Assembly (NCBI GenBank): GCA_964344415.1
Contig: CAYFMS010000001.1
Coordinates: 250,620 to 314,619, forward strand
Source of the DNA: an uncultured Gammaproteobacteria bacterium
GTDB taxonomy: Bacteria; Patescibacteriota; Patescibacteriia; UBA9934
Length of the DNA stretch: 64,000 nucleotides
Direction of reading: 5' to 3'
In this document: one piece after another, positions 1-64,000 of the stretch
Layout: the number at the start of each line of letters is the position of its first letter
How positions within the stretch are numbered: position 1 is the first letter of the stretch
Notes under the pieces: model-generated
What the model saw: only the letters and a program-made list of their open reading frames with translations
What the model was told of the DNA's origin: nothing
Database searches by the model: none
Translations under genes and position numbers: made by a program

Positions 1-235
1 GAATGAATTCGGAGATCGTATTGCATATGCGCGAACAAAAGAAGAGGTGTTTCCAGCGCATGCACTCCTTGTGCTTACGGAATGGCCGGAATTTGATCTT
101 GATGATTGGCAGTTGGTAAAGCAGCAAATAAAAACGCCATATATTTTTGACGCAAAAAACTTTTTGAATCGCAAGCGAATGAAGGAAGCTGGATTAGTAA
201 TGGTTGGAATGGGTATATGCGAGCAAGGAAATTAA
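1..235 (+). CDS. UDP-glucose/GDP-mannose dehydrogenase family protein, C-terminal fragment (5' end outside window)
   Basis: Frame continues open from position 2; translation ...IAYARTKEEVFPAHALLVLTEWPEFDLDDW...IFDAKNFL matches the C-terminal UDP-binding domain of UDP-glucose 6-dehydrogenases. Confidence 0.6.
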   Translation, partial: NEFGDRIAYARTKEEVFPAHALLVLTEWPEFDLDDWQLVKQQIKTPYIFDAKNFLNRKRMKEAGLVMVGMGICEQGN

Positions 236-1677
236 CACGATCTTGGATTTTCTTTTTGATTTTGGCGGCATTTGTTGTTGGTGTAGGCGTTGCTTCATAT
301 TCGAACAATTTTTTTGTTCAATCTATTTTTGGTCTTCTGACCATCTTTATTGTTGGTAGATTTTTTTCAAAGACAGATTTGCAAATATTGCTTTTAACAC
401 TTCTCGTATGCGCCGCCGCTTTTGCTGGTGGGATTATTCGATATGATTTTGCAAATCCTACGGCTCTTTCTGTGCGGCATTTGCCAGATACATATGTCAC
501 ATTTCAGGGATCTATTGAATCCATGCGCGTTTCTGAATCTCATCAGCAATTAACAATTGGATCGATTCAGTATGGAGACGAAAAAAGGTCTGGAAATATT
601 CTTGCATTTGTTCCGGTATTTCCTGAATTGCGGGCAGGAATTGATGTTCAAGTTAGTTGCGAACTTAGTCAGCCAGAGCCATTTCAAGGCTTTGCGTATG
701 ACCGATTCTTGGCTGCAAGGAATACATATAAAACATGCTTCACGCATGATACTCCGGTGATCCTCGGGCAGCCTCGCAGTATTCAGGCGGCATTTTGGAA
801 GGTAAAAAATGATGCCATTGATTCAATACGTCGATCTTTTGATGAACCTCATGCAACGCTTCTTGCGGGGCTTTTACTTGGCGAGCGCGGTTTTCAAGAT
901 ACATGGGATGAGGCATTTATTCGTACGGGGACAAGTCATATTGTTGCAGCATCTGGCTATAATGTCACCATCGTCAGCTTTATTCTTTTTGGGCTTTTGA
1001 CGTGGTTTGGAGTGAAGCGTCAAACGGCTTTTCCGCTCTTGCTTGTCGGAATCGCATCTTATGTTCTTCTCGTGGGGGCTGATGCGCCGATTATTCGTGC
1101 AGGAATTATGGGGGCATTGGTGCTAACGGCTCGTTTTCTGGGCAGGCAAACAACAATGCGCAATATTCTTCTCCTTACGGCCGTGATTATGCTGACACAG
1201 AATCCATTACTTCTTCGTGATGATGTTGCATTTCAATTATCTATACTCTCAACTATCGGTCTTGTTTATTTAGCACCATTTTTTGAGAAACGTCTTCAAT
1301 TCATTCCATCGGCATTCACAATTCGCGAATCTTTTGTTGCAACACTTGCCGCAACCGTAACAACATTGCCAATTATTCTGACATCATTTGGCCAGCTCTC
1401 AACTGTGAGTCCATTTGTGAATCTTCTCATTCTCCCAATCGTTCCTTATGCTATGCTCTTCGGCGTTCTTGCAATAAGTATTCCAAAAATAGGTTTTGTT
1501 TTTGCGGGTATCGCTTGGCTTCTTCTTGAAATTATTCTTTTTGTCATTGCATCAATATCGCAGCTTGGCTTTGCATCAATTTCCATTTCTGAACCAATTG
1601 CTTATGCAGCAAGTATTCTTTATGTAGCAATCTTCATATTATGCGTATACTTTTACAAAAAATCATTGTTTCGATAG
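217..1677 (+). CDS. comEC: ComEC/Rec2 family competence protein, membrane (competence) domain
   Basis: 486 aa poly-topic membrane protein with ComEC-like internal segment (IVAASGYNVTIVSF, many TM helices); overlaps next ORF in a different frame. Confidence 0.7.
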   Translation: MRARKLTRSWIFFLILAAFVVGVGVASYSNNFFVQSIFGLLTIFIVGRFFSKTDLQILLLTLLVCAAAFAGGIIRYDFANPTALSVRHLPDTYVTFQGSIESMRVSESHQQLTIGSIQYGDEKRSGNILAFVPVFPELRAGIDVQVSCELSQPEPFQGFAYDRFLAARNTYKTCFTHDTPVILGQPRSIQAAFWKVKNDAIDSIRRSFDEPHATLLAGLLLGERGFQDTWDEAFIRTGTSHIVAASGYNVTIVSFILFGLLTWFGVKRQTAFPLLLVGIASYVLLVGADAPIIRAGIMGALVLTARFLGRQTTMRNILLLTAVIMLTQNPLLLRDDVAFQLSILSTIGLVYLAPFFEKRLQFIPSAFTIRESFVATLAATVTTLPIILTSFGQLSTVSPFVNLLILPIVPYAMLFGVLAISIPKIGFVFAGIAWLLLEIILFVIASISQLGFASISISEPIAYAASILYVAIFILCVYFYKKSLFR

Positions 1678-2501
1678 CGGTGAGTAGCTTGCTATTCCTG
1701 CTTGCCGTAGGTCTTGAATATGCATCGCCACATGTCATAACAGATCCGCAGCATGTGACGGTTTGGGTTTTTGATGTTGGGCAGGGTGATGCCATTTTCG
1801 TGCAGGGTCCTGAACAGCAAGTGCTGATTGACGGAGGTCCAAATGAAGCAATTCTTGAGGAGCTCAATGCCGTGATGCCATTTTGGGATCGGCATATTGA
1901 TTACCTGATTAATACGCATCCGCATGCGGATCATGTGACGGGACTTGTGCATGTGCTCGATCATTATGAAGTAAGTCGAGTCTATACATCCGGCCAGCGT
2001 CATAGTACGAATATTTATGAACATTTTTTGCAGGAAGTGAATGACGAAGTCATTATGGCGGGCGACGTGATTGATCTTGGTTCGGGTGCGCGGCTTCATT
2101 TTTTATGGCCAGATGAGTTATTAGATGGAAAGCGTTTAAATGATCCAAATGCTGGTTCATTAGTTGCATTGCTTACATATCGTGGGAAAAGCATGCTATT
2201 AACGGGTGATATTGGGGTTAAAGAGGAAGCGGAATTGCTCGATGATCTTGGTGATATAGATGTATTGAAGGTTGGTCATCAGGGAAGTGATACATCCAGC
2301 TCTCGAGACTTTCTAGATGCTATTACTCCGGAATATGCCATCATTTCTGTCGGTGAAAATGATTATGGACATCCTGATTCTGTCGTTATGGACCGTATAC
2401 AGCAATTTGGTGCAGAGCTATTCCGCACAGACACTGATGGAAGTATCAAAGTGGAATTTGGTGATGATATTGTGATTGGCGGTTATCAACTTGGATTATA
2501 A
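1641..2501 (+). CDS. ComEC C-terminal metallo-beta-lactamase domain protein (separate ORF)
   Basis: N-terminal TM helix then VWVFDVGQGDAIFVQ...NTHPHADHVTGL MBL-fold motifs typical of the ComEC C-terminal domain. Confidence 0.75.
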   Translation: MRILLQKIIVSIAVSSLLFLLAVGLEYASPHVITDPQHVTVWVFDVGQGDAIFVQGPEQQVLIDGGPNEAILEELNAVMPFWDRHIDYLINTHPHADHVTGLVHVLDHYEVSRVYTSGQRHSTNIYEHFLQEVNDEVIMAGDVIDLGSGARLHFLWPDELLDGKRLNDPNAGSLVALLTYRGKSMLLTGDIGVKEEAELLDDLGDIDVLKVGHQGSDTSSSRDFLDAITPEYAIISVGENDYGHPDSVVMDRIQQFGAELFRTDTDGSIKVEFGDDIVIGGYQLGL

Positions 2502-35934: not shown

Positions 35935-36599
<665 letters not shown>

Positions 36600-52236: not shown

Positions 52237-52336
52237 TGGGCCGAGGAGGGCTCGAACCTCCAACTTCCGTCTATTACATCTCAGGCATAGACCTGAAATG
52301 TGGCAGACGGTGTTCTCACCATTGAACTATCGACCC
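52237..52336 (-). tRNA. Aberrant 100-nt tRNA-like gene: intact acceptor, D and T arms but 34 nt between the anticodon-stem halves (possible small intron or pseudogene)
   Basis: Minus strand GGGTCGA-TA-GTTC-AATGGTGA-GAAC-A-CCGTC-[TGCCACATTTCAGGTCTATGCCTGAGATGTAATA]-GACGG-AAGTT-GGAGG-TTCGAGC-CCTCC-TCGGCCC-A; no CCA encoded. Confidence 0.5.
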
Positions 52337-52428: not shown

Positions 52429-53031
52429 ATGAGATTTCGAGGACGGCAGTATACTGAAGATCATTTTTTGAAGCGATTATTGGGTTCGACGCTTGGATCA
52501 ATCGCTCTTTTTTTGCTTGAAGTCATTCAGATCGGTGTTATTGCCGGCGTCATCATTTTTAGTGTTCGAACATTTCTTGTGAAGCCATTTGTGGTACAGG
52601 GCGGGTCCATGGAGCCGAATTATTACGATAATGAGTATCTTATTATTAATCAGACGCAAAAGCAGTATAAGCGCGGCGACACGGTTGTTTTTCATCCGCC
52701 CGGAAATGAGCAGCAATTTTACATTAAACGCATTATTGGCCTACCCGGAGAAGTCGTTGAGTTAAAAGACGGTGTCATTATGATTTTTAATGACGATCAT
52801 CCGAATGGTTTTCAGCTCAATGAATCCTATATTCACGAATTCACACATGGACGTGAACGTGTAACAGTTGGTCTTGACGAATACTATCTTTTGGGGGATA
52901 ATCGTGACTCGAGTTTAGACTCGCGGAATTTTGGCCCCGTGCCAAATGAGAACATTGTTGGTAAGGTCTGGTTGCGCGGATTACCATTTGAACGCGCCGG
53001 AATTATTGATAGACCGATTTACACATATTAG
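52429..53031 (+). CDS. lepB: Signal peptidase I
   Basis: VVQGGSMEPNYYDNEYLIINQ (Ser), RGDTVVFHPPG, GDNRDSSLDSR boxes. Confidence 0.85.
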   Translation: MRFRGRQYTEDHFLKRLLGSTLGSIALFLLEVIQIGVIAGVIIFSVRTFLVKPFVVQGGSMEPNYYDNEYLIINQTQKQYKRGDTVVFHPPGNEQQFYIKRIIGLPGEVVELKDGVIMIFNDDHPNGFQLNESYIHEFTHGRERVTVGLDEYYLLGDNRDSSLDSRNFGPVPNENIVGKVWLRGLPFERAGIIDRPIYTY

Positions 53032-53037
53032 TTAGCT

Positions 53038-54372
53038 ATGCCGAAGAAATCTACGAAGAAGCAAGTGGAGGAAAAGCCAAAAAAGAAAATAACAAAACCA
53101 AAATTACTGAGAGGTTTTAGAGATATATTGCCCGAAGAGCAGGTGTACTGGAATCATGTGACCGATGCTGCGAGACGGATTTCTGAAGATTATAGCTTTG
53201 GACGTATTCGCCTTCCATACCTCGAACGCACACGACTATTTGAACGTACGATCGGAAAGGGGACGGATGTTATTGATAAGGAGATGTACAAGTTTGAGGA
53301 TGCTGGCGGAGACAAGGTTTCTTTGCGTCCTGAAGCAACGGCGCAAATAGCCCGCGCTTATATTGAACATGGAATGCTTAATTTACCGCAGCCTGTAAAG
53401 ATGTGGTACATGGGACCAATGTTCCGGCATGATCGCCCGCAAGCTGGACGGTATCGTCAGTTTTGGCAATGGGGAATCGAGGTACTTGGGTCTAGCGATC
53501 CTATTACAGATGCACAGATTATTTTGATGATGCACCGATTCATGGCTGAGCTTGGCTTGAATGTAAAAATCAAAATCAACTCAATTGGGACATCTGAATC
53601 TCGTCGAGAATACATCATGGAGCTTGTAAGTTATTTCAAGCAATTCCGAAGTAAGCTAAGTGACGTTGATAAGAAGCGATTGCAGAAGAATCCACTTCGG
53701 CTTCTTGACTCGAAAGAGGATGGAATGGCCGAATTGAAGCAGGATGCGCCTCAGATTCTTGATTGGCTTGATGATGAGTCTAAGAAAGAATTCATGACAC
53801 TTCTTGAGTATTTGACGGAGGCGGAAGTTCCATATGAACTCGATCCATTTTTGGTAAGAGGTCTTGATTATTACGGTAAAACAGCGTTTGAAGTTGTTGC
53901 CGTTGATGAAGATGGTAAAGAATTGCTTGGCGGACTATCCCTTGCTGGTGGAGGTCGATACGATGACTTGATTCCCCAAATCGGCGGTCGTGAAGAATTT
54001 GCCGGTGCTATCGGTGCCGCGGTTGGCGTGGAACGCGTAATCCTTGCAATGAAAGAATCAGGTATTGATCTTGGCCCAGGAACAGATGTTGATGTATTTT
54101 TCTGTCAGCTTGGAGAGGCTGCAAGACGAAAGGGGCTGAATATTTTTGAGGATTTCAGAAAGGCTGATGTTTCAATTGCTGAAGCATTCGGTAAAGGATC
54201 GCTCAAAGCGCAGCTTGAAACGGCAGATAAGCGTAATGCAAAAATCGCTCTTATTCTCGGACAAAAAGAGGTGCTTGATGGAACAATTATCATCCGAGAT
54301 ATGGATAGCGGTGGTCAGGAAATTGTGAATGTTGAAAAAGTGGTCAGCATTGTAAAAAAACAATTGAAGTAA
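53038..54372 (+). CDS. hisS: Histidyl-tRNA synthetase
   Basis: LRGFRDILPEE, class II motifs, C-terminal anticodon-binding domain. Confidence 0.9.
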   Translation: MPKKSTKKQVEEKPKKKITKPKLLRGFRDILPEEQVYWNHVTDAARRISEDYSFGRIRLPYLERTRLFERTIGKGTDVIDKEMYKFEDAGGDKVSLRPEATAQIARAYIEHGMLNLPQPVKMWYMGPMFRHDRPQAGRYRQFWQWGIEVLGSSDPITDAQIILMMHRFMAELGLNVKIKINSIGTSESRREYIMELVSYFKQFRSKLSDVDKKRLQKNPLRLLDSKEDGMAELKQDAPQILDWLDDESKKEFMTLLEYLTEAEVPYELDPFLVRGLDYYGKTAFEVVAVDEDGKELLGGLSLAGGGRYDDLIPQIGGREEFAGAIGAAVGVERVILAMKESGIDLGPGTDVDVFFCQLGEAARRKGLNIFEDFRKADVSIAEAFGKGSLKAQLETADKRNAKIALILGQKEVLDGTIIIRDMDSGGQEIVNVEKVVSIVKKQLK

Positions 54373-54495: not shown

Positions 54496-54741
54496 ATGTC
54501 AGATATTCTTATTAAGAAAAACAAAGGCGAAAGCTTTGAATCAATGTTCCGACGGTTCAAAAACCGAGAGCGACAAAGTGGAAAACCGCTTACCGTAAAA
54601 GGAAAGCGTTACCATGCTCGAGACATTGCAAAGAATAAGCAAAAAGCCAGCGCTTTGCGAAAAATTGCTAAAGCGACAAAGATCAATTATCTGCTTCGAA
54701 GCGGAAAGATGACTGAGCAAGAATTGCGCGGTCGTCGATAA
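54496..54741 (+). CDS. rpsU: 30S ribosomal protein S21
   Basis: FRRFKNRERQSGKPLTVKGKRYHARDIAKNKQKASALRKIAK. Confidence 0.8.
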   Translation: MSDILIKKNKGESFESMFRRFKNRERQSGKPLTVKGKRYHARDIAKNKQKASALRKIAKATKINYLLRSGKMTEQELRGRR

Positions 54742-54767: not shown

Positions 54768-55211
54768 TTATCCTAGGTGTTTTTGGACGAATTCGCGAAC
54801 GCGATTTCCATCGGCTTTGCCAGCTAATTCTTTCATGGCGGCACCCATAGCACGCCCCATATCTGATAAATCCGTGACCCCTGCATTGTCGAGTGCTTCT
54901 TTTACCTTGCTGGACAGTTCCTCATCACTCATTTCAGCGGGTAGATATTTCTTCAAAATGGCAATTTCTTTTTCCGTTTTTTCTACGAGATCATCGCGTG
55001 CGGCGGCTGTAAAATCTTTCAAAGCATCTTGCAATTTTTTTACATCACTTTTTACGGCTGCGACAACTTCCGCTTCTTCGAGCTCTTTCTTTAATTCAAT
55101 AGACTTATTTTTTATGCTCGATACAACGAGTCTTAAAATATCCACTGTTTCGCTATCGCGATCCTTCATCGCTTGCACCAAATCCCCCTTCAATTGTTCA
55201 AATAAATTCAT
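54768..55211 (-). CDS. GatB/YqeY domain protein
   Basis: MNLFEQLKGDLVQAMKDRDSETVDILRL...; start at ATG 55211 preferred. Confidence 0.7.
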   Translation of the reverse strand: MNLFEQLKGDLVQAMKDRDSETVDILRLVVSSIKNKSIELKKELEEAEVVAAVKSDVKKLQDALKDFTAAARDDLVEKTEKEIAILKKYLPAEMSDEELSSKVKEALDNAGVTDLSDMGRAMGAAMKELAGKADGNRVREFVQKHLG

Positions 55212-55293
55212 ATGCGCAATTGTATCATATCCTCTCCACAACTGAACTGAAATTCACAGAGCATAACTGTTATAATGACCGAAACGAAATGAA

Positions 55294-57105
55294 ATGAGAA
55301 AATTTCGGGGGACAGGGTATGTTCATATGCTCGCGGCAATGTTTGCGGTGATTCTTGTGATTTTGCTTTCGCCAGATTTTGTATCGGCGCAAGATGTGAA
55401 TTTGGACACGGTTGGTGAGGCGAGTGGTCTTGCGGGAGGGAATTTAGTGACGATTATCGGGACGATCATTCGGGTATTCATTGGTATTCTCGGCGTCGTT
55501 TTCCTTTCCCTCATGATTTATGCCGGTGCGCTTTGGATGGGGGCTGGTGGAAATCCTGAAATGGTTGAAAAGGCAAAGAAGGTTATGGTACGCGCCGTGA
55601 TTGGGCTCATCATTACACTTTCTGCTTTTGCAATCACAACATTCATTTTCAATGCTCTTCAAAATGCGGGCCTTCTTGGAACAGGAACGGGTGGACTTGG
55701 AACGACACCGGGGGCGCCTCCATTCTCAAACTCTCTTGGTAATGGTGGGATTCGCGATCATTATCCTGAACGAAATGCAACGGATGTGCCGAGAAATGCA
55801 AAAATCATTGTCACATTTAAATCCGCAATGGATCTTGAGCGCTTCATCGACGGATATGATGCAAATGGAACGCCGCTTGATGTGTCCGACGACTCGGTTG
55901 GTGGAACGCCGATCCAGGATGGTATAGCATTTCCACTTAATGACAATCTTGTAACGATTTATCCGACAGATGAGGGCGAAGGTGCAAAATTAACCTCTTC
56001 TGAAGTATCTGTTTCTTATACGGATGACCTGCAAACTTTGGTATTTGTGGTTCCGCTTCTTGGTTCTTCTGTTGAAGATACGCTGTATACAGTTGAATTG
56101 TCTGATCGCCTTGTCGACGCAGAGGGAGATCAAATTATCGACAATGGTGGATATATTTGGAATTTCACCGTTGGAACGCAAATCGATTTGACGCCTCCTT
56201 ATATTCAAAGCGTTATTCCGATTGAGGGCCGACAATATGCTCGTAATATTGTCGTTCAAATTAATTTCAGCGAAGCAGTTGATCCCGTGTCTTCTTCTGG
56301 GATCTTTAATGCTGGCGACGCAAATTCATTTAATCATATAGAAGTTACAGGAGATTTATCAGGTCCCGTATCTGGAAATTATGCGATTAGCAATGGATAC
56401 AAAACAGTGACATTCATCACAACGGACATTTGCGGGACGAACTCTTGCGGTGAAACTCTTTTCTGCCTGCCGGCGAGTGAAAATATTCGAGCGGATATTC
56501 ATGCTGCGACTCCTGGAAGTAATCCGCCTCAGGTTGATTTCTACCCATATGACGGTGTAGCAGATGTTGCTGGTAATGCTCTTGATGGAAATAATGATGG
56601 TGAAGCGGGCGATGATTTCGGATGGGATTTCCGAACGAATAATGCCATCGAACTTGCTGGTCCAGAAATTGAATCCGTGACGCCTGATATTCTGGCTGAA
56701 GATGTGCCACTCGATCAGGCGGTGACCATTGTTTGGAATGACATTTTGATGGCGAACTCTGCGACCTCGGACAATATTTCATTTGTATCACGCCCTGAGC
56801 ATGAATTGTGGTTTACGACGCGTCTTGAAGATATTGAAGGTCCATCGAGCAATATGGTTTCAAGCCTTTCACTTCCGCATGGAATTCTTCTTGAATCGAC
56901 GGAAGATCAGTCATATCTTTACGATTTATTGGTTACGCAGGGGGTGAGAAATCAGTATCAGAATTGCTATAATCCAGCGATTGGACCAGATGGATCTGGC
57001 GGAGAATGTGTGCCGCAACCTGGTGGAGCGCTTGATCAGGCATATTGTTTTAATGGTGATCCGGTAGCGGAAGATCAATTACCGAGCTCATTTATTTCGC
57101 CATGA
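55294..57105 (+). CDS. Large secreted/surface protein with signal peptide and conserved N-terminal double-hydrophobic module (paralog of next gene)
   Basis: Signal peptide ...SPDFVSAQ; IIRVFIGILGVVFLSLMIYAGALWMGAGGNPEMVEKAKKVMVRAVIGLIITLSAFAITTFIFNAL conserved with the next ORF. Confidence 0.7.
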   Translation: MRKFRGTGYVHMLAAMFAVILVILLSPDFVSAQDVNLDTVGEASGLAGGNLVTIIGTIIRVFIGILGVVFLSLMIYAGALWMGAGGNPEMVEKAKKVMVRAVIGLIITLSAFAITTFIFNALQNAGLLGTGTGGLGTTPGAPPFSNSLGNGGIRDHYPERNATDVPRNAKIIVTFKSAMDLERFIDGYDANGTPLDVSDDSVGGTPIQDGIAFPLNDNLVTIYPTDEGEGAKLTSSEVSVSYTDDLQTLVFVVPLLGSSVEDTLYTVELSDRLVDAEGDQIIDNGGYIWNFTVGTQIDLTPPYIQSVIPIEGRQYARNIVVQINFSEAVDPVSSSGIFNAGDANSFNHIEVTGDLSGPVSGNYAISNGYKTVTFITTDICGTNSCGETLFCLPASENIRADIHAATPGSNPPQVDFYPYDGVADVAGNALDGNNDGEAGDDFGWDFRTNNAIELAGPEIESVTPDILAEDVPLDQAVTIVWNDILMANSATSDNISFVSRPEHELWFTTRLEDIEGPSSNMVSSLSLPHGILLESTEDQSYLYDLLVTQGVRNQYQNCYNPAIGPDGSGGECVPQPGGALDQAYCFNGDPVAEDQLPSSFISP

Positions 57106-60100
57106 CTTTTTCTCGACGAAACATTTTGATGCTTCTTGGATTGGCGCTCGGATTTGCAGCCATACTTGGCTTTGCCGATTTTGCTTTTGCGCAAGGCGCA
57201 ATCGATTCTCTTGAAACAGTTGGAGATCAGTCTGGACTTGGGGATCAAGATATTCGTATTGTTATCGCACGAATCATTCGTACGGTACTTGGTGTTTTGG
57301 GCGTGCTTGCTGTCATTATCGTGATTTACGCAGGATTTTTATGGATGACGGCCGCTGGAAATCCAGAACGTGTTGATAAAGCAAAGCGCATTTTGATTCA
57401 GGCGATTATTGGCCTTGTTATTATCTTTTCTTCTATTGCGATCACGACATTTGTTATCAATTCTATTTTGAATGCAACGGGCGGTTCTGGCACATCTGGA
57501 TTTGGAAATGGAGGTCGAACCGTGCCAATTGGCGGTGCGACGACGACGAGTTTTGTTATCACGGAATTTGTTCCAGAGGGAGAGGTTCCGATTCGCAATG
57601 TTGTTGGACAATTGGCATTTAGCGGAAAAATTGAAGAGGAATCGGCTCAAGATGCAATTAGGGTATTTAATCTCGACACGCAGGAAGAGGAAGAAATCGA
57701 TCTTACAATCGGATTGACGCGTATTGCTATTCGTTCTGCAGAGACATGTCCGGAACCAAATGACGATCGTCGTTGCTTTGGTGAAAATACGAATTATCGT
57801 TTGACGGTTGCAGATTCTGTACGCAGTCAGGTGGGGCGAGAATTGGTTTGTAATACCCTTCATCCATGCGAATTTACATTCACAACGGGTGATTTAATCG
57901 ATGTCGATGATCCGAATGCGAATCTTATTATCCCCGGTAATGGGCAGAGATTAGCGCCAAGTTCTCTTGTTGATGTGCAGGTGCATGCAACGGATGATAG
58001 CGCGGTTGCGGCGGCCGATTTCCGCGCTGAGGGGGATCTCTTCAATTCTGTTCCGGCGACAGGTGATGATTTGACTGATGTAACCATTGATACGCTTTGG
58101 GATAATGCAGGGTTTGAAGAAAATGCAACATATACCCTTGATGTCACTGTTATAGATATTGCAGGAAATACAGATACCGATTCAGTGTCTGTACGAATCA
58201 ATCCTGCGCATTGTTATAATGGTTCATTTGACGATGATCTTGGTGAAACGGGATTGGATTGCGGAGGTGTTTGCGGGGCTTGTCAGGGTGGTGCATGTAC
58301 GGATTCTTCGGAGTGTGCATTCGGAAGTTGTATTAATAATGTATGTACTGCGCTTCCAATTATCGAGGGTATATCTCCAGATAATGGTGCTCCGGGTACA
58401 TTTGTATACATTCAAGGATCATTTTTCGGATCCACAGCGGGTCAGGTGTTTTTCACAGGTGAAAATGGCACTTTGCTTGCGGCGACATCTCCAGCTTGCT
58501 CCGAGGGGTGGGGCCATTCAGGGGTAATGGTCGAGGTTCCGGTTGGCGCTGTTGATGGTCCGATTACACTGCGAACAGCTGCAGGACTTGAAGATGCATC
58601 AAATGACGACAATGGTCCTCTTCATTCTGATTTCGATGTGAATGAATTGCAGAGACCGAATCTTTGTCGTATTTCTCCAAATACAGGAAGGCAAAGGTCA
58701 GTAGTGAATTTGATTGGAGACAATTTTGGTTCTGCGCTCGAAGATGATTCCGCGGTGCATTTCGACTTAGATGAATCATTCCTTTTTGATGAAACAGAGC
58801 CAAATAGTTATGAATCTTGGTCAAATGATTCCATCTCCGTAACCACGCCGGGAATTCCGGATGATGATTATTTCGTGACGGTGTCGACTGGTGGTATACG
58901 GTCAAATCCTGCGCCATTTTTCATGCGCAGTCAGTCATCGGATGACTTTGAAGATTTACCTCAAATTTCGGGCATTGACCCATCATCTGGCGGTATTGGA
59001 AGTTATGTCACCATTTCTGGACTGCATTTTGGAAGTCGTATTGGTACGGTTCGATTTGAAAATACTCGAACAGGCGAGAGTGGTGTGGCGAGCATTGATT
59101 TCCCAGAGAGCTGCTCTGAAGGTTTTTGGAATAATGATCAAGTCATCGTAATCATCCCTGACGCATATGATAATGGAAATGCCGTTCAGGCTGATGCACA
59201 TAGCGTTTATCTTATTCGAAGTGATGGCGCGATTTCAAATAGCAGTAGTTTTCAGGTAACGAATGCGAGTCCAGATCCGGGTATTTGTCTTTTGGATCCA
59301 GATATTGGTTCCAGTGGTACGACGGTGACTATTCATGGGGACCATTTTGGTGACGGTGCTGGCAATGTCACATTTTATAATGAAATTGACGGATCGATTA
59401 CGAGTTGGGGAAATCAGCAAATTACCGTTGAAGCTCCTACGGGCGAAACGGGGCCTGTTTATGTAACTACGGTAAGTGATCAAGATGCATTCGGGGGGCT
59501 TGAGAGTAATCGGGTCAATTTTGAATTCGGTATTCAGGATGATTCGGTAGAAGTGGCCGGGGTAAGGAGTGGGTATGGATTTACCTTCTCAACGGGAATA
59601 ATCCCAGAAACGCCGAGTATCGTGATCGCTTGTAATGAAGATATTATCAGTGGGGTCCCGAATGCACAGTTTACGCAGAGTGTTTGTCATAATGTGCTTG
59701 TAAAAGCTGACTTTACAACGCTCATGGATCATTCATCACTTCGAATGGGGGAATCTGTTCTTGTACAGGAATGTCTGAATGATCGATGTGGACGTCTTGG
59801 TGATCCAATTGATGCGGAGCTGCGTCTTTATGATGCATCAGGGTTTACATATTTTGAAACAGAGCCATTTGGAAATCAGGCGGCATCTGCAAATACCAAA
59901 TACCAAGTAACGGTTACGACGGCGGCATCATCTGCCGAGGGTATTCCATTCGATCGTGATATTTCTTGGCAATTTGAAACAGGGGATGAAAATGCATCAT
60001 GTACGGTTGAAGATGTACTTTTGGTGCCAGATGAGGAAATTTTGACATATGAAGGGCAGCAAAGCGAATTCCGAAGCTATGCAACGGATGGATCATGTTT

Positions 60101-63100
60101 ATTGCTTTCAAGCGATATTGACTGGGATTGGTTTGTTGGACCAAGCATTGCTTCCATTGAACCGGGTGCATGTCAGGGGGATAATCGAGACGAATGCGCC
60201 GTTGTGACGGCTCGCTCACAAGGAGAAACAAAAGTCATTGCTCGTGAACGTCAAAGTCGGCTTTCGGATGATGCAGATCTTACCGTTATCTTTGAAGACC
60301 CATATGTAGAACAATATTGGCCTCATTGTAATTCAGCATGCCTGAATGCGGCTATTGGTGGGCGATTCAATGTACCGATGAGACTTTCTTATCTTGGAAC
60401 GGGTATTGAAGATGTAAATAATGTCATTGTTGAAGAATGTGCAAATGAACTTTGTGCAACGACGACGAGACAGATTGCAAATTCAGCTCATTGTGTCATT
60501 GAAGAGGAATTACCAAATGGCGAGAGTGGATGCATTGAATTTGCTGCAAATCTCGACATCGACCGACTCAATCCGGATGCATTCTATCGCGTAACCGTCT
60601 CTCAAAATATTCAGTCACGTGAAGCGAAGCCGCTTACACGTTTGAATGATCCAAGTGGTTTTGTATGGACATTTGGTTCAGGGGCAGATGTTTGCGCTGT
60701 TTCATATATTGATGTTCATCCAGATCGTGAAATCACGGATTTGGTCGGGGACCGATCTTCATTTGCCGTGAAGCCATTCAGCGATCCAGATAGTTGTTCT
60801 GTCGCAGGGCAAAGGCTTGATGCTCGTGATTATGATTGGAATTGGTCCATTGACGATGTTAGAATTGCTGATTTCGTAGGCCCACAAAGTGGATTCTTCG
60901 AATCAGGTATAGATAATATTCCAAATGGATGTACGGATTCTTGTTTGGCGTCTGGTTCGGTGTCATTGCCGGCTCTTTGTGGAAACGGAATTATCGAAAC
61001 CGGCGAGGAATGTGAAGACGGAAATATTGCATCGGGAGATGGATGTAGCTCTTCCTGCTTGCGCGAAGGTGTTTTCGGTGAGGGGCAAATTCTTTGCGGA
61101 AATGGAATATTGAATCGATTGCCAAGTGGTGCGGGTGAAGATTGTGATGACGGAAATCGATTCAATGGAGACGGTTGTAGTTCTCTTTGTTTGAATGAAG
61201 GGTCTCATTCCATCAATGCACAATGTGGAAATGGTGATATTGCTTTCGATCCTTCAGTTGGTGGTGAAGACTGTGATGATGGAAATCTAGTAAGCGGCGA
61301 CGGATGTAGCGCATCTTGTACATTTGAAGGGTCTTCTTCTGTTCTTGAATCTCCAGCCATTTGTGGAGATGGTCAGATTACAGCACCATATGAGACATGC
61401 GATGATGGGAATGCTATTTCGGGTGATGGATGTAGTGCATTTTGTGTGCGTGAGGGTAATACGATTGGTTCTGTTTGTGGTGATGGATTACTCGCGCGAA
61501 ATCCATTAACGGATGCAGGTGAAGATTGCGATGACGGAAATCGATTCAATGGAGATGGTTGTAGCTCACTTTGCTTATTTGAAGGTTCCTCTATGCAATA
61601 TGATGCCCCTTCTATTTGCGGTGATGGAATTGCGGGTATTGGTGAATACGGAGCTTGCGAAATCGGAGTAAGTGGTGATGGTCGTATTGATCCGACTCAA
61701 CTGGCAGAAATCATGTCGACGGCTCCTCTTCAAGTTGATGAACGCACTCATTTAGCAGAAGCGACTATCACGGTCACCGAGGGTGATAGTGTCAGTATTT
61801 CGGATCAGGCAGTGTATGGACTGTCTTGCGGGGCAGAATCTGATCTTGATTGTCGAGATCCGGACGAAAATGGTATTGGTCAAAATGGATGCTGCATTGC
61901 GCGGCCTTCCGTCACGGATATTTTGCCTAATCATAGCAATGTTTGCCGAAATGCAACCCTTCAATTCATTACAGATCAGGAAATAGATAGTGATAGCTAT
62001 CAAGGAAATGTATTCGCTATTCTCGATACGAGCACGACAGGAGGTATTTGTCCGGATGGTCATAAAATTCTTACAAATGATGATTTGGCGCTTCATGATT
62101 CTTTCCTTGCGCGACTTTGGCATTCATTAAAGCGATTCTTTGTACCGAATGTGACGGCGCAAAGTGCTGGAGAGTGTGCGATCGATGTGAGAGATGTCTC
62201 GTCCATACCGATTGAAAATCAAGATGGATCTGTCCAGGCATATAGAAATATTCTTTCTTACACGAATGCACTCGAACCAAATGCGAATTATACGATTTTT
62301 GTAGAAGGAGATGAAAATGTTCGTGATGCTGTTTTGGAAGGAATTGCTGCCCGTGGAGGTGCTCATATGAATGGTATTGCAAGACAATCGTTCACGACTG
62401 GTTCAGAAATTTGTGAACTCGATCAAATCATTGTCGAAGATACAACGGGTGACATTCCTGGGTACTTCGGAACATTTGACGAATCTCATCTCTTTGCGGC
62501 AAGAACTTATACGCTTGAAAATGGTTCACGGGAAGAAATTCAACCAGTAGCGGGAGTGTATGAATGGGTATGGGATGATTGGCGTGAAGATTCTTCCGGC
62601 GTCATTGTCACAGTGGAAAGCGGTATTGATCTTGGTGGAAATTCGGTGGATGGATCGATTGCGACGGTGACATCTGGTCGGGAAATTGGAGATGCGAATG
62701 TTATTGCTTCGGTTGCCATCTTTGAAAATGGACAGCAGACAGGTACGCTTTCAAGCGCAGAGCAGGTCAGGACATTTACTTGTGAAAATCCATGGCCACA
62801 TTTCGATCATTTCCCATTTATTGATGACGATACTGGAACGCAGCCGGGAATAGAGCGCGGAATCGGATGGACGAATTTCTCAACATTCTATTGTCGAGAT
62901 GCTGGTGATGATGGTCCTTCTGGCGATTTGCCGGCTATTGACGTTGTACGTCCCGACCCAGGAGTTGGTGAGGGTGCTTCAATTGTTTTGAAGGAATATC
63001 TCTTTGAAATTGCTGATAATTCTGGAGATGCAATTGGTATTCGTATTGCTGAAAATCCGGATTATCTTAGCCCGCAGGATTGGTATACGGATCAGGGATT

Positions 63101-64000
63101 TGTTGGAAGTCCGTCGCCGGTACAAATTGATGGGTATGAAGCAATTCGTGATGGTCGAACCTATTATATTTCGGCTCCGAATGAGGGTGGTCTTGGTGCG
63201 CTCTATTCGAATATGTATATCATTTCGCATAATGAGCTTGCGGATGATGACACGTTAAACATCTTCAATCAAATCATCAATCACTTGAAATTAAATACAA
63301 ATATCACTGATGTTGGATTCTGTGCAGATGTGAGTGGTCAATATACCAATACATCCTGCTCTTCCGACCTCGACTGTAATGCGGGGGAAATTTGTGCAGA
63401 TGAAAAGGCAAAATTGACGCGAGATTTGAAGCGTATAACCGACATGCAAGTCATTGGTCAAGCAATCGAAGCGTATGGATCTTCAAATGGTTTCTGCAGT
63501 CAAACAACCGAGCAAGCCTGCACGAGTGCAAGTCAATGTCCGACGGGAGAGATCTGCAGGCAATCAGTGCCGTTACTCGAATCAGGTACTTTTGTTCGCT
63601 CGGTCGCCTCGAGCGCTTGGGATAGCTGGGGAACTGAATTCAGCGCCGCTCTTGGCAATGTGCCGAGCGATCCATTGAATTCATACGGCGATCTTTGTTC
63701 TATTGAGCCTGATTTGAATGAAAAATGTCAGGATATTTCTGATGGATCATATATGTGTCCCCTGGGTGCTCATGCATATCATTACCGCTCAAATGGAAAA
63801 TTTGACTATGAATTGACAGCGGACCTTGAATATAGCGGAGGTGATTGGGTCAATCCTGCCCCGTCATTCAATCTTGGGACGATTACAATAGGCGGAAATA
63901 ATGACAATTCTGTTTCTGGATTCTATGGGGGCCCATATGTTTGTCAGGGGTGGAGACTTGGAACATCGTCATTCTGCGGGGATGGAATCATTGGCGAAGA
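57102..64000 (+). CDS. Giant surface protein (>2290 aa, 3' end beyond window) with shared N-terminal module, IPT/TIG repeats and Myxococcus-type Cys-rich (DUF4215-like) repeats
   Basis: ATG 57102 overlaps previous stop (ATGA) and the frame stays open to window end. N-terminus is ...IIRTVLGVLGVLAVIIVIYAGFLWMTAAGNPERVDKAKRILIQAIIGL. At least four ISP..G..GT.V.I.G..FG IPT/TIG units sit around 58330..59470. At least six CG(N/D)G....GE.CDDGN...GDGCS..C units sit at 60978..61690. Confidence 0.7.
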   Translation, partial: MTFSRRNILMLLGLALGFAAILGFADFAFAQGAIDSLETVGDQSGLGDQDIRIVIARIIRTVLGVLGVLAVIIVIYAGFLWMTAAGNPERVDKAKRILIQAIIGLVIIFSSIAITTFVINSILNATGGSGTSGFGNGGRTVPIGGATTTSFVITEFVPEGEVPIRNVVGQLAFSGKIEEESAQDAIRVFNLDTQEEEEIDLTIGLTRIAIRSAETCPEPNDDRRCFGENTNYRLTVADSVRSQVGRELVCNTLHPCEFTFTTGDLIDVDDPNANLIIPGNGQRLAPSSLVDVQVHATDDSAVAAADFRAEGDLFNSVPATGDDLTDVTIDTLWDNAGFEENATYTLDVTVIDIAGNTDTDSVSVRINPAHCYNGSFDDDLGETGLDCGGVCGACQGGACTDSSECAFGSCINNVCTALPIIEGISPDNGAPGTFVYIQGSFFGSTAGQVFFTGENGTLLAATSPACSEGWGHSGVMVEVPVGAVDGPITLRTAAGLEDASNDDNGPLHSDFDVNELQRPNLCRISPNTGRQRSVVNLIGDNFGSALEDDSAVHFDLDESFLFDETEPNSYESWSNDSISVTTPGIPDDDYFVTVSTGGIRSNPAPFFMRSQSSDDFEDLPQISGIDPSSGGIGSYVTISGLHFGSRIGTVRFENTRTGESGVASIDFPESCSEGFWNNDQVIVIIPDAYDNGNAVQADAHSVYLIRSDGAISNSSSFQVTNASPDPGICLLDPDIGSSGTTVTIHGDHFGDGAGNVTFYNEIDGSITSWGNQQITVEAPTGETGPVYVTTVSDQDAFGGLESNRVNFEFGIQDDSVEVAGVRSGYGFTFSTGIIPETPSIVIACNEDIISGVPNAQFTQSVCHNVLVKADFTTLMDHSSLRMGESVLVQECLNDRCGRLGDPIDAELRLYDASGFTYFETEPFGNQAASANTKYQVTVTTAASSAEGIPFDRDISWQFETGDENASCTVEDVLLVPDEEILTYEGQQSEFRSYATDGSCLLLSSDIDWDWFVGPSIASIEPGACQGDNRDECAVVTARSQGETKVIARERQSRLSDDADLTVIFEDPYVEQYWPHCNSACLNAAIGGRFNVPMRLSYLGTGIEDVNNVIVEECANELCATTTRQIANSAHCVIEEELPNGESGCIEFAANLDIDRLNPDAFYRVTVSQNIQSREAKPLTRLNDPSGFVWTFGSGADVCAVSYIDVHPDREITDLVGDRSSFAVKPFSDPDSCSVAGQRLDARDYDWNWSIDDVRIADFVGPQSGFFESGIDNIPNGCTDSCLASGSVSLPALCGNGIIETGEECEDGNIASGDGCSSSCLREGVFGEGQILCGNGILNRLPSGAGEDCDDGNRFNGDGCSSLCLNEGSHSINAQCGNGDIAFDPSVGGEDCDDGNLVSGDGCSASCTFEGSSSVLESPAICGDGQITAPYETCDDGNAISGDGCSAFCVREGNTIGSVCGDGLLARNPLTDAGEDCDDGNRFNGDGCSSLCLFEGSSMQYDAPSICGDGIAGIGEYGACEIGVSGDGRIDPTQLAEIMSTAPLQVDERTHLAEATITVTEGDSVSISDQAVYGLSCGAESDLDCRDPDENGIGQNGCCIARPSVTDILPNHSNVCRNATLQFITDQEIDSDSYQGNVFAILDTSTTGGICPDGHKILTNDDLALHDSFLARLWHSLKRFFVPNVTAQSAGECAIDVRDVSSIPIENQDGSVQAYRNILSYTNALEPNANYTIFVEGDENVRDAVLEGIAARGGAHMNGIARQSFTTGSEICELDQIIVEDTTGDIPGYFGTFDESHLFAARTYTLENGSREEIQPVAGVYEWVWDDWREDSSGVIVTVESGIDLGGNSVDGSIATVTSGREIGDANVIASVAIFENGQQTGTLSSAEQVRTFTCENPWPHFDHFPFIDDDTGTQPGIERGIGWTNFSTFYCRDAGDDGPSGDLPAIDVVRPDPGVGEGASIVLKEYLFEIADNSGDAIGIRIAENPDYLSPQDWYTDQGFVGSPSPVQIDGYEAIRDGRTYYISAPNEGGLGALYSNMYIISHNELADDDTLNIFNQIINHLKLNTNITDVGFCADVSGQYTNTSCSSDLDCNAGEICADEKAKLTRDLKRITDMQVIGQAIEAYGSSNGFCSQTTEQACTSASQCPTGEICRQSVPLLESGTFVRSVASSAWDSWGTEFSAALGNVPSDPLNSYGDLCSIEPDLNEKCQDISDGSYMCPLGAHAYHYRSNGKFDYELTADLEYSGGDWVNPAPSFNLGTITIGGNNDNSVSGFYGGPYVCQGWRLGTSSFCGDGIIGE
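60978..61690 (+). repeat. In-frame tandem ~120-nt DNA repeats encoding Cys-rich CGNG...GEECDDGN..GDGCS..C modules
   Basis: Six successive units start with TGTGG(A/T)(A/G)A(C/T)GG; coding, not CRISPR. Confidence 0.6.

Follow-up and report, generated by a model that had tools for sequence, protein, structure and literature searches.

A conserved gene pair of Patescibacteria that joins a VirB2-type pilin module to an Ig-like stalk and to a giant adhesin-like chain

We describe two adjacent genes of an ultrasmall bacterium of the Patescibacteria, ORF1 and ORF2 (ORF, open reading frame), at the 3' end of a 64,000-nucleotide stretch of contig CAYFMS010000001.1 (assembly GCA_964344415.1), which we call the window throughout. 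The genes overlap by the 4 nucleotides ATGA at 57102..57105 and encode proteins that share an N-terminal module and carry very different ectodomains after it. ORF1 is complete in the window. ORF2 runs off its end, with 2,299 of 3,195 amino acids (aa) inside. An identical ORF1 protein is found on a metagenome contig of 768,188 bp (ENA ERZ930061), which gave the part of ORF2 beyond the window, up to a stop codon at window-equivalent position 66689; the fetched source locus (L001) is the same as the window sequence, with no difference across the overlap. The cassette takes up about 11.4 kb; beside a main contig of 768 kb, this is a heavy investment in a reduced genome. A preliminary description, made from the window's letters, had noted the ATGA overlap, as can be seen in the sequence, and had spoken of two giant proteins; that word fits ORF2, but ORF1, at 603 aa, is mid-sized. 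The features of the pair are as follows.

55294..57105, + strand: ORF1, 603 aa, a pilin-headed immunoglobulin-like (Ig) stalk protein (T4SS_pilin and Big_5), from the ORF and its translation
55294..55389, + strand: ORF1 signal peptide, aa 1-32, predicted cut between V-S-A and Q, from hydropathy; helix 7-25 in the model
55390..55665, + strand: ORF1 VirB2-type pilin module, aa 33-124, with acidic N-tail, helix 51-82, GNPE..KAKK loop and helix 88-124
55666..55737, + strand: ORF1 Gly/Thr/Pro-rich flexible linker, aa 125-148, predicted local distance difference test score (pLDDT) below 50 at 127-138, low conservation (32%)
55738..57102, + strand: ORF1 ectodomain, aa 149-603, about four tandem Ig-like beta domains (Big_5) and a Cys-rich C terminus
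57102..>64000, + strand: ORF2, 2,299 aa of 3,195 inside the window, a pilin-headed giant adhesin-like protein
57102..57191, + strand: ORF2 signal peptide, aa 1-30, predicted cut between A-F-A and Q, from hydropathy; helix 5-30 in the model; Ala30 invariant, consensus AxAQ
57192..57476, + strand: ORF2 VirB2-type pilin module, aa 31-125 (PF18895/PF04956/NF045849), helices 51-82 and 88-125, pLDDT about 90
57912..58145, + strand: Big_7 Ig-like domain of ORF2, aa 271-348, Pfam score 25.7 bits on the segment (cut-off 24.1)
58350..59531, + strand: four IPT/TIG domains of ORF2, about aa 417-810 (PF01833, four stretches, 70.4 bits)
60978..61574, + strand: five Cys-rich acidic repeats of ORF2 (DUF4215/TIGR02232 "myxo_disulf_rpt"), aa 1293-1491, followed by a degenerate sixth copy
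61599..63969, + strand: conserved region of ORF2 without a Pfam match, aa ~1500-2290, covered by 46-62 of 76 orthologs

The two N termini are plainly related. BLASTP aligns the proteins at E = 1e-24; the similarity is dense at residues ~13-125 and continues more weakly to about residue 350, and, judged from the alignment, it is far past the level of chance. By Kyte-Doolittle analysis, the hydrophobic segments of each protein number exactly three; they lie in the first 125 residues and correspond to the signal peptide, helix 1 and helix 2. By its sequence the shared module belongs to the pilin family of type IV secretion systems (T4SS). The PF18895 T4SS_pilin model (gathering cut-off, 26.6 bits) scores 28.8 bits on ORF1 (aa 49-118) and 35.8 bits on the window's part of ORF2 (aa 55-118); on the complete 3,195-aa ORF2 it scores 41.9 bits, and on the isolated 140-residue N termini of ORF1 and ORF2 it scores 32.5 and 40.7 bits, respectively. 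The TrbC/VirB2 model PF04956 (cut-off, 27.9 bits) gives 28.1 bits for the isolated N terminus of ORF2 and falls under the cut-off on full-length ORF2; precomputed PF04956 matches are present on several ORF1 orthologs. NF045849, the model for the Mbov_0395 pilin-like conjugal transfer protein (cut-off, 40 bits), matches the isolated ORF2 N terminus at 43.2 bits, with ORF1 under the cut-off. The preliminary description had recognized a shared signal and double-hydrophobic segment and had compared the latter with VirB2/TrbC-type hairpins, both of which are borne out; it had also held that no family could be named with certainty, an uncertainty that is resolved rather than refuted now that the module can be called PF18895. 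Sequence matches to PDB entries, obtained with the ORF2 N terminus and with a profile of the module, were to designed repeat proteins ("Pizza" and helical designs) and were set aside as spurious low-complexity hits.

Signal peptide cleavage of both proteins is predicted from hydropathy, from AlphaFold models and from the conserved site: among 130 ORF1 relatives, position -1 is Ala in 128, position -3 is Val or Ala in 118, and position +1 is Gln in 104. In the same relatives the mature N-tail has a net charge of -2.6, the loop between the helices +1.0 and the stretch after helix 2 -1.0, a pattern that fits an N-out/loop-in/C-out topology, as expected of a VirB2-type pilin. The AlphaFold models, for which 130 full-length relatives and 26 N termini served as inputs, place a signal helix and a short helix before a long hairpin (helices 51-82 and 88-124/125) that has a pLDDT of about 90. 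Other identities were considered and rejected. A lipoprotein would carry Cys at +1, where these proteins have Gln. An LPXTG/sortase substrate is not indicated either, as no hydrophobic segment lies beyond residue 125 and the C termini read ...LPSSFISP and ...VRFAHCAP; indeed, neither protein has a C-terminal sorting signal, a C-terminal anchor or a lipobox. Type IV pilins are set apart by a class III signal, in place of which we find an AXA site and a two-helix hairpin, and PF07963 (N_methyl) gave no match at E <= 1.

Neither protein is a small single-domain pilin (mature length, about 70-120 aa), as at 603 and 3,195 aa both have ectodomains after the module. As neighboring genes they do form a tandem-pilin "VirB2 array" in the sense of at least two PF18895/PF04956 genes that adjoin or lie one gene apart. 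Small size and T4SS linkage, two features of classical VirB2 pilins, are thus missing from proteins that match the family, and we consider them best described as VirB2-type modular pilins, or pilin-anchored adhesins.

What follows the module in ORF1 is a compact stalk. Pfam finds Big_5 at 46.9 bits, and the model, with an overall pLDDT of 89.1, runs from signal helix and hairpin through the linker to Ig domains with pLDDT values mostly above 95. Cys380, Cys385 and Cys391 are invariant in the ectodomain. Foldseek returned only tandem Ig proteins for this part (the Big domains of LdtMt2, the S-layer protein SbsC and titin) and no enzyme.

The ectodomain of ORF2 is far longer and more varied. From the N-terminal side it comprises an Ig/Big_7 region, a small Cys knot, the four TIG domains, a Big_5-like domain, Cys-rich repeats, about 800 residues without a Pfam match, more Cys-rich repeats and a VWA domain. 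The Ig-like region 5' of Big_7 is homologous to the first ectodomain domain of ORF1. The IPT/TIG units named in the preliminary description are all found by the Pfam scan, and the positions and motifs that it gave are right. It had also counted at least six Cys-rich repeats of Myxococcus type; the type stands (PF13948 at E = 1.2e-24 and TIGR02232 at E = 1e-45, five stretches each in the window), and the count comes down to five plus the degenerate sixth copy. A further CGDG repeat, as it had noted, starts at the last residues of the window, and the complete ORF2 has six PF13948 stretches, against five in the window. The repeats, CGNG..E.CDDGN..GDGCS..C, are a type held in common with Myxococcus-type proteins and are no evidence of a common system. 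The downstream sequence that the preliminary description had called for revealed the VWA domain (PF00092, 37.7 bits on the C-terminal segment), whose intact metal-ion-dependent adhesion site (MIDAS) motif, DTSGS, lies at aa 2829-2833; the DxSxS pattern is kept in 9 of 13 ORF2 orthologs. ORF2 contains 136 Cys residues and is strongly acidic (D+E, 14.7%; K+R, 4.6%), and this number of cysteines and this acidity fit an extracytoplasmic protein.

In some lineages the distal stretch of ORF2 (about aa 1900-2300, with the motif IRI..NPD..SP..WY...VDGY) is encoded apart, as a secreted protein of 690-900 aa. Separate genes of this kind are ORFs of ~870-900 aa 3' of the giant gene in loci L041, L045 and L069, and L090:8001..10085; short stand-alone homologs of about 300-420 aa are found elsewhere (P0285-P0293), for an overall stand-alone range of 300-900 aa. 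Because the unit occurs alone, we take it to be an independent functional unit.

The pair is widespread. When each GTDB species was represented by one genome, relatives of ORF1 turned up in at least 405 species-level genomes, the named ones being Candidatus Uhrbacteria, Falkowbacteria, Magasanikbacteria, Komeilibacteria and Parcubacteria. Homolog searches recovered a large family of 550-690-aa proteins with PF18895 and Big_5, annotated at most as "Ig-like domain-containing protein"; all named sources are Patescibacteria (Candidate Phyla Radiation), which agrees with the earlier surmise of a host-attached bacterium with a reduced genome. Eighty loci were fetched, and their ORFs were called and scored with hidden Markov models (HMMs) built from our own alignments. 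In about 77 of them a second pilin-headed ORF of 1,650-3,470 aa lies directly 3' of the ORF1 ortholog; in the three apparent exceptions (L041, L045 and L069) the next gene starts with a divergent hairpin that is under the HMM threshold. The ORF2 orthologs are colinear with ORF2 across nearly the whole length, and the ectodomain content differs by lineage, with Laminin_G_3, fn3 or TSP3 in place of TIG/DUF4215. Many of the GTDB representatives that have the cassette (L008-L087) bear the title "uncultured Gammaproteobacteria bacterium," and single ones read "Kapaibacterium" and "Udaeobacter"; such names appear to be placeholders or mistaken.

Within this family the hairpin is the best conserved part. 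Mean pairwise identity among ORF1 relatives is 53-55% for helix 1, the loop and helix 2, 28% for the signal peptide, 32% for the linker and 37-50% for the Ig domains, and the glycines and the motif YAGFLWMTAGG of the hairpin are invariant or nearly so. The modules of ORF1 and ORF2 are of one kind, as a single alignment column suffices to list what tells them apart. Moreover, modules from the same genome resemble each other more than modules paired at random: own-genome pairs have a mean identity of 0.568, compared with 0.474 ± 0.005 for permuted pairs (none of 5000 permutations was as high; Wilcoxon p = 1.4e-10), and in 12-13 of 77 genomes the nearest relative of a module is its own-genome neighbor. 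This likeness reflects either gene conversion or co-adaptation, the latter of parts that would touch each other or a common partner.

The module also reaches far beyond the pair. An exhaustive profile search of 1.84 billion cluster representatives found the module in 75,103 proteins, of which 25,087 reach E <= 1e-10. Among the best 150 representatives, proteins of the ORF1 type span 550-690 aa and those of the ORF2 type 2,263-4,978 aa; others are short (122-190 aa) or are polyproteins in which 2-17 modules stand in tandem. Against the family profile, the fused modules equal the short proteins in score, and the module is always N-terminal. Some of the 122-190-aa matches stop just after helix 2 and may be fragments from contig ends, and for this reason the case for stand-alone pilins is built on the complete short pilin genes (123-165 aa) that lie between the two large genes in L039, L043 and L067. 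Elsewhere in Patescibacteria, pilin arrays have members of mixed length, from 111 to 440 aa. The family is thus architecturally diverse, from short pilins through pilin-adhesin fusions of up to about 5,000 aa to polyproteins with up to 17 modules, and these three architectures are not described in the literature searched. Together with the conservation and the co-variation, the breadth of the family suggests a role for the hairpin beyond that of a greasy anchor. Among the polyproteins, P0137 has six repeats in 552 aa with no stops, and P0143 has 17 matched stretches in 1,775 aa; P0179 is a further case. Such poly-pilins would either cross the membrane many times or be precursors, and we know of no description of them.

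The cassette is a conserved core locus of a large Patescibacteria clade. In most of the 80 loci the order lepB-hisS-rpsU-yqeY-ORF1-ORF2 is kept, and the upstream block in the window, in which yqeY is inverted (as in L008) relative to most other loci, is as follows.

52429..53031: lepB (signal peptidase I)
53038..54372: hisS
54496..54741: S21-like 81-aa ORF
54768..55241: yqeY

Processing of the pilin-headed proteins would be expected of signal peptidase I, although its linkage to them may be coincidental. A promoter-like site at 55247..55276, + strand (L001 9954..9983; CTGAAA, an 18-nucleotide spacer and TG-TATAAT), found by a consensus scan, ends 17 nucleotides 5' of the ORF1 start codon; sites of this kind are no commoner there than in shuffled sequence, and the candidate is a pointer only. 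On the other side, at least 28 loci have a third gene 3' of ORF2, which starts here at window-equivalent position 66661 (L001:21368..21812; also L008:15580..16377 and L012:20983..21804). Its product of about 270 aa has a single N-terminal transmembrane (TM) helix, helical repeats that contain Cys and, at the C terminus, a Ca-binding repeat of the bacterial TSP3 type; this protein probably belongs to the same surface apparatus. The genes for YbeY (ybeY) and diacylglycerol kinase come after it. In one related locus (L090, 1293..1652) a 23S_rRNA_IVP gene (PF05635) lies between the ORF1 and ORF2 homologs, and a gene of the same family adjoins a pilin array in L088 (13830..14069).

No T4SS gene appears in the gene tables of the window or of roughly 90 related loci, and a search for T4SS domains among the large ORFs of the window found none; the 64 kb contain no pilin modules besides those of ORF1 and ORF2. 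A tblastn search of 72,556 plasmids with the module gave no match, which argues that the module is no recent import from a plasmid or an integrative and conjugative element (ICE) at detectable similarity. A mobile-element origin of the cassette was rejected because its synteny with housekeeping genes is conserved.

The other genes of the window are comEC, murA, aspS/asnS, parAB, relA, topA, a Mur ligase gene, dprA, pth, der and a LytR-CpsA-Psr gene, in addition to those of the block above. Three observations among them stand apart from the cassette. comEC appears to be split into overlapping ORFs on the + strand, 217..1677 (DUF4131 and Competence domains) and 1641..2501 (metallo-beta-lactamase domain), through a frameshift or assembly error or as a true split gene. 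Rfam matches a group I intron at 36392..36576 (+ strand) with 53.2 bits against a gathering score of 50; the match overlaps the end of an ORF of 172 aa at 35987..36505. Finally, a 100-nucleotide Rfam tRNA match at 52237..52336 (- strand), between the LytR-CpsA-Psr gene and lepB, is not called by ARAGORN and may be intron-containing or otherwise unusual.

We lean toward the view that ORF1 and ORF2 are surface adhesins built on a VirB2-type pilin module, held in the membrane by the hairpin with the C-terminal part outside, and that they serve as attachment gear. Both proteins would be exported by Sec and cut by signal peptidase I after the conserved V/A-x-A, before Gln. The mature N terminus would then form the two-helix hairpin in the cytoplasmic membrane, with the acidic N-tail out, the basic GNPE-KAK loop in and the C terminus out. 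If the C terminus of the hairpin is outside, everything after helix 2 would be displayed at the surface of the cell, set off from the hairpin by a flexible Gly-rich linker. For ORF1 the displayed part would be a short rigid stalk of about four Ig-like domains. For ORF2 it would be a flexible, acidic, disulfide-rich chain of roughly 3,000 residues, with Ig/TIG spacers, Cys-rich repeats, the unannotated unit and, at the far end, the VWA domain, whose MIDAS metal site makes it the likely ligand-binding tip. The two proteins, probably with the small TM/TSP3-repeat protein, would constitute an attachment apparatus of an epibiotic Patescibacteria cell.

Several observations sit uneasily with an account that ends at membrane-anchored adhesins. 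The hairpin is conserved beyond the needs of a passive anchor, so that, to judge from the alignments, the module probably does more than anchor. Gene conversion between adjacent paralogs could explain the own-genome likeness in place of co-adaptation. The Foldseek search of the PDB with the hairpin model found nothing significant (VirB2 of the T-pilus, 8fai, ranked 8th with E = 6.8), although a helical hairpin is too simple for such a test. In addition, the adhesive role is deduced from the types of domain that the sequences contain. In an extension of the adhesin reading, the modules are true pilus subunits: a T4SS (VirB4/VirB6/VirB3) with genes elsewhere would extract them from the membrane and incorporate them, as minor or tip subunits, into a VirB2-type pilus. 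This would be the conjugative-pilus counterpart of the modular type IV pilins PilB and PilC of Streptococcus sanguinis. Fused modules that match the family profile as well as the short proteins do, and always at the N terminus, speak for this extension, as do the difference of only one alignment column between the two modules and their co-variation, the strong conservation of the hairpin, the short pilin genes inside three cassettes and the mixed member lengths of other arrays. T4SS with VirB2-like arrays are, furthermore, widespread in the phylum, essential in Southlakia and reported for class ABY1 (PMC12102498, PMC10633639). Against it stand the lack of T4SS genes in the window and the related loci, the absence of a short major pilin from about 95% of cassettes and the insignificant structural match; moreover, a graft of 3,000 residues would be tolerable only if it sat at a tip or if its stoichiometry were very low. 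In favor of the extension, both termini of VirB2 and TraA pilins face the outside of the filament, and so a C-terminal graft is topologically allowed. We regard this extension as possible but less likely than display from the membrane by way of the hairpin. Should it hold, class ABY1-type Patescibacteria would possess a VirB2 pilus with the two modular pilins as its first subunits, a host-capture organelle in which the Ig stalk and the VWA-tipped adhesin of 3,000 residues are covalently part of the pilins. That tentative picture would provide the first modular pilins in the VirB2 superfamily, and it would explain why VirB2 arrays, essential in the one tested strain (Southlakia), persist in monoderms that mostly lack relaxases.

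The remaining alternatives are considerably weaker. The proteins could be a housekeeping envelope scaffold, S-layer-like or wall-spanning fibers that maintain envelope integrity rather than bind hosts, a notion that draws on their core-genome place among housekeeping genes, on their near-universal presence in the clade, on the nearby LytR-CpsA-Psr gene and on the resemblance of the ORF1 ectodomain to S-layer SbsC, among other tandem-Ig proteins. VWA/MIDAS, TIG and Cys-rich repeats are nonetheless typical of adhesins, and the difference in ectodomain composition between lineages fits ligand-driven diversification better, so we consider a scaffold improbable. Still less probable is a cleavable carrier, in which the hairpin is an export or insertion device and the ectodomain is cut at the Gly-rich linker and released, as in the C-terminal processing of RP4 TrbC. 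The linker after helix 2 is indeed disordered and poorly conserved, and C-terminal trimming is known for TrbC-family pilins; however, the linker has no conserved cleavage motif (at 32% identity), no protease gene is conserved in the cassette, and released giant adhesins could not tether a cell. Least credible of all is an association with type IV (competence) pili, which the preliminary description had offered as one option. comEC and dprA do lie in the window, and N_methyl pilin genes are found about 7 kb 3' of the cassette in L090, but comEC and dprA are about 8-55 kb off with unrelated housekeeping genes between, and the Sec signal with its AXA site, the two-helix hairpin and the missing class III prepilin signal and PF07963 match all speak against this option, which we disfavor.

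If ORF1 and ORF2 are adhesins, as we favor, the cassette is a strong candidate for how these bacteria hold other cells, and the VWA/MIDAS tip and the unannotated distal unit are the candidates for host binding. To our knowledge, host recognition and holding by most Patescibacteria are unexplained, and genetics is available for Saccharibacteria only. There, type IV pili, a T4SS and a VirB2-like pilin array are essential for reasons that are unexplained. The locus links a VirB2-type module directly to large adhesin domains and offers a hypothesis for the role of the T4SS pilins of Patescibacteria. The cassette is a syntenic core in hundreds of groundwater and freshwater species.

Published work provides a background for this hypothesis. 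Patescibacteria have a monoderm-type T4SS accompanied by VirB2-like pilins, often in arrays of 2-11 genes; in Southlakia the T4SS and the pilins are both essential for epibiotic growth, and genomes of class ABY1 have T4SS loci (PMC10633639, PMC12102498, PMC12857230). In the searchable literature we found no mention of pilin modules fused to large ectodomains or of this cassette with its housekeeping neighbors; the supplementary figure legends of PMC12102498 give no pilin lengths. The nearest relatives of the pair are these arrays (SEML1_0006-0019 of Southlakia epibionticum and the "Sec-secreted array" of TM7x; PMC12102498), which have in common with it the PF18895/PF04956 family, the phylum, the tandem divergent genes and a Sec signal followed by a hairpin. 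They are discussed as small pilins, however, and often adjoin virB4, whereas the genes described here have ectodomains of 480 aa and about 3,070 aa, are surrounded by housekeeping genes in a 64-kb stretch free of T4SS genes, and form a syntenic core locus of Uhrbacteria/Falkowbacteria/Magasanikbacteria/Komeilibacteria-type genomes.

The classical pilins VirB2 (Agrobacterium T-pilus), TrbC (RP4) and TraA (F) likewise have a long signal peptide cut by signal peptidase I, two hydrophobic helices with a basic loop, and N and C termini on the outer face, and Agrobacterium VirB2 is also cut between Ala and Gln. The analogy is not exact, since these pilins have mature lengths of about 70-90 aa, are often cyclized or acetylated and are encoded in T4SS operons of diderms. 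PF04956 is matched here only at threshold, the match to 8fai is not significant, and cyclization of ORF1 or ORF2 would be impossible without removal of the ectodomain. Another parallel is the Mbov_0395 family of Mycoplasma ICEs (NF045849), where the ORF2 N terminus matches the whole 80-position model and both hosts are without an outer membrane; that family consists of a short protein on a mobile element, in contrast to the chromosomal core genes with large ectodomains considered here.

For the architecture rather than the module, parallels are found elsewhere. In Streptococcus sanguinis, PilB (with a vWA module) and PilC (with a lectin module) carry an adhesin grafted C-terminal to a pilin module, including a VWA domain with a MIDAS (PMC8179133), a design that makes a filament or anchor adhesive in its own right. 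Those are type IV pilins with a class III signal processed by PilD; the present proteins have a VirB2-type hairpin, a Sec signal and another assembly machine, and their grafts are up to ten times larger. Finally, the giant non-fimbrial adhesins (SiiE, LapA-type RTX proteins and LPXTG Ig-repeat proteins) resemble ORF2 in their long chains of Ig-like spacers, distal binding domains, acidity and Ca-binding-type repeats. They are anchored by retention modules of type I secretion systems, by sortase at LPXTG or by outer-membrane plugs, whereas in the proteins described here the corresponding place is taken by an N-terminal pilin hairpin.

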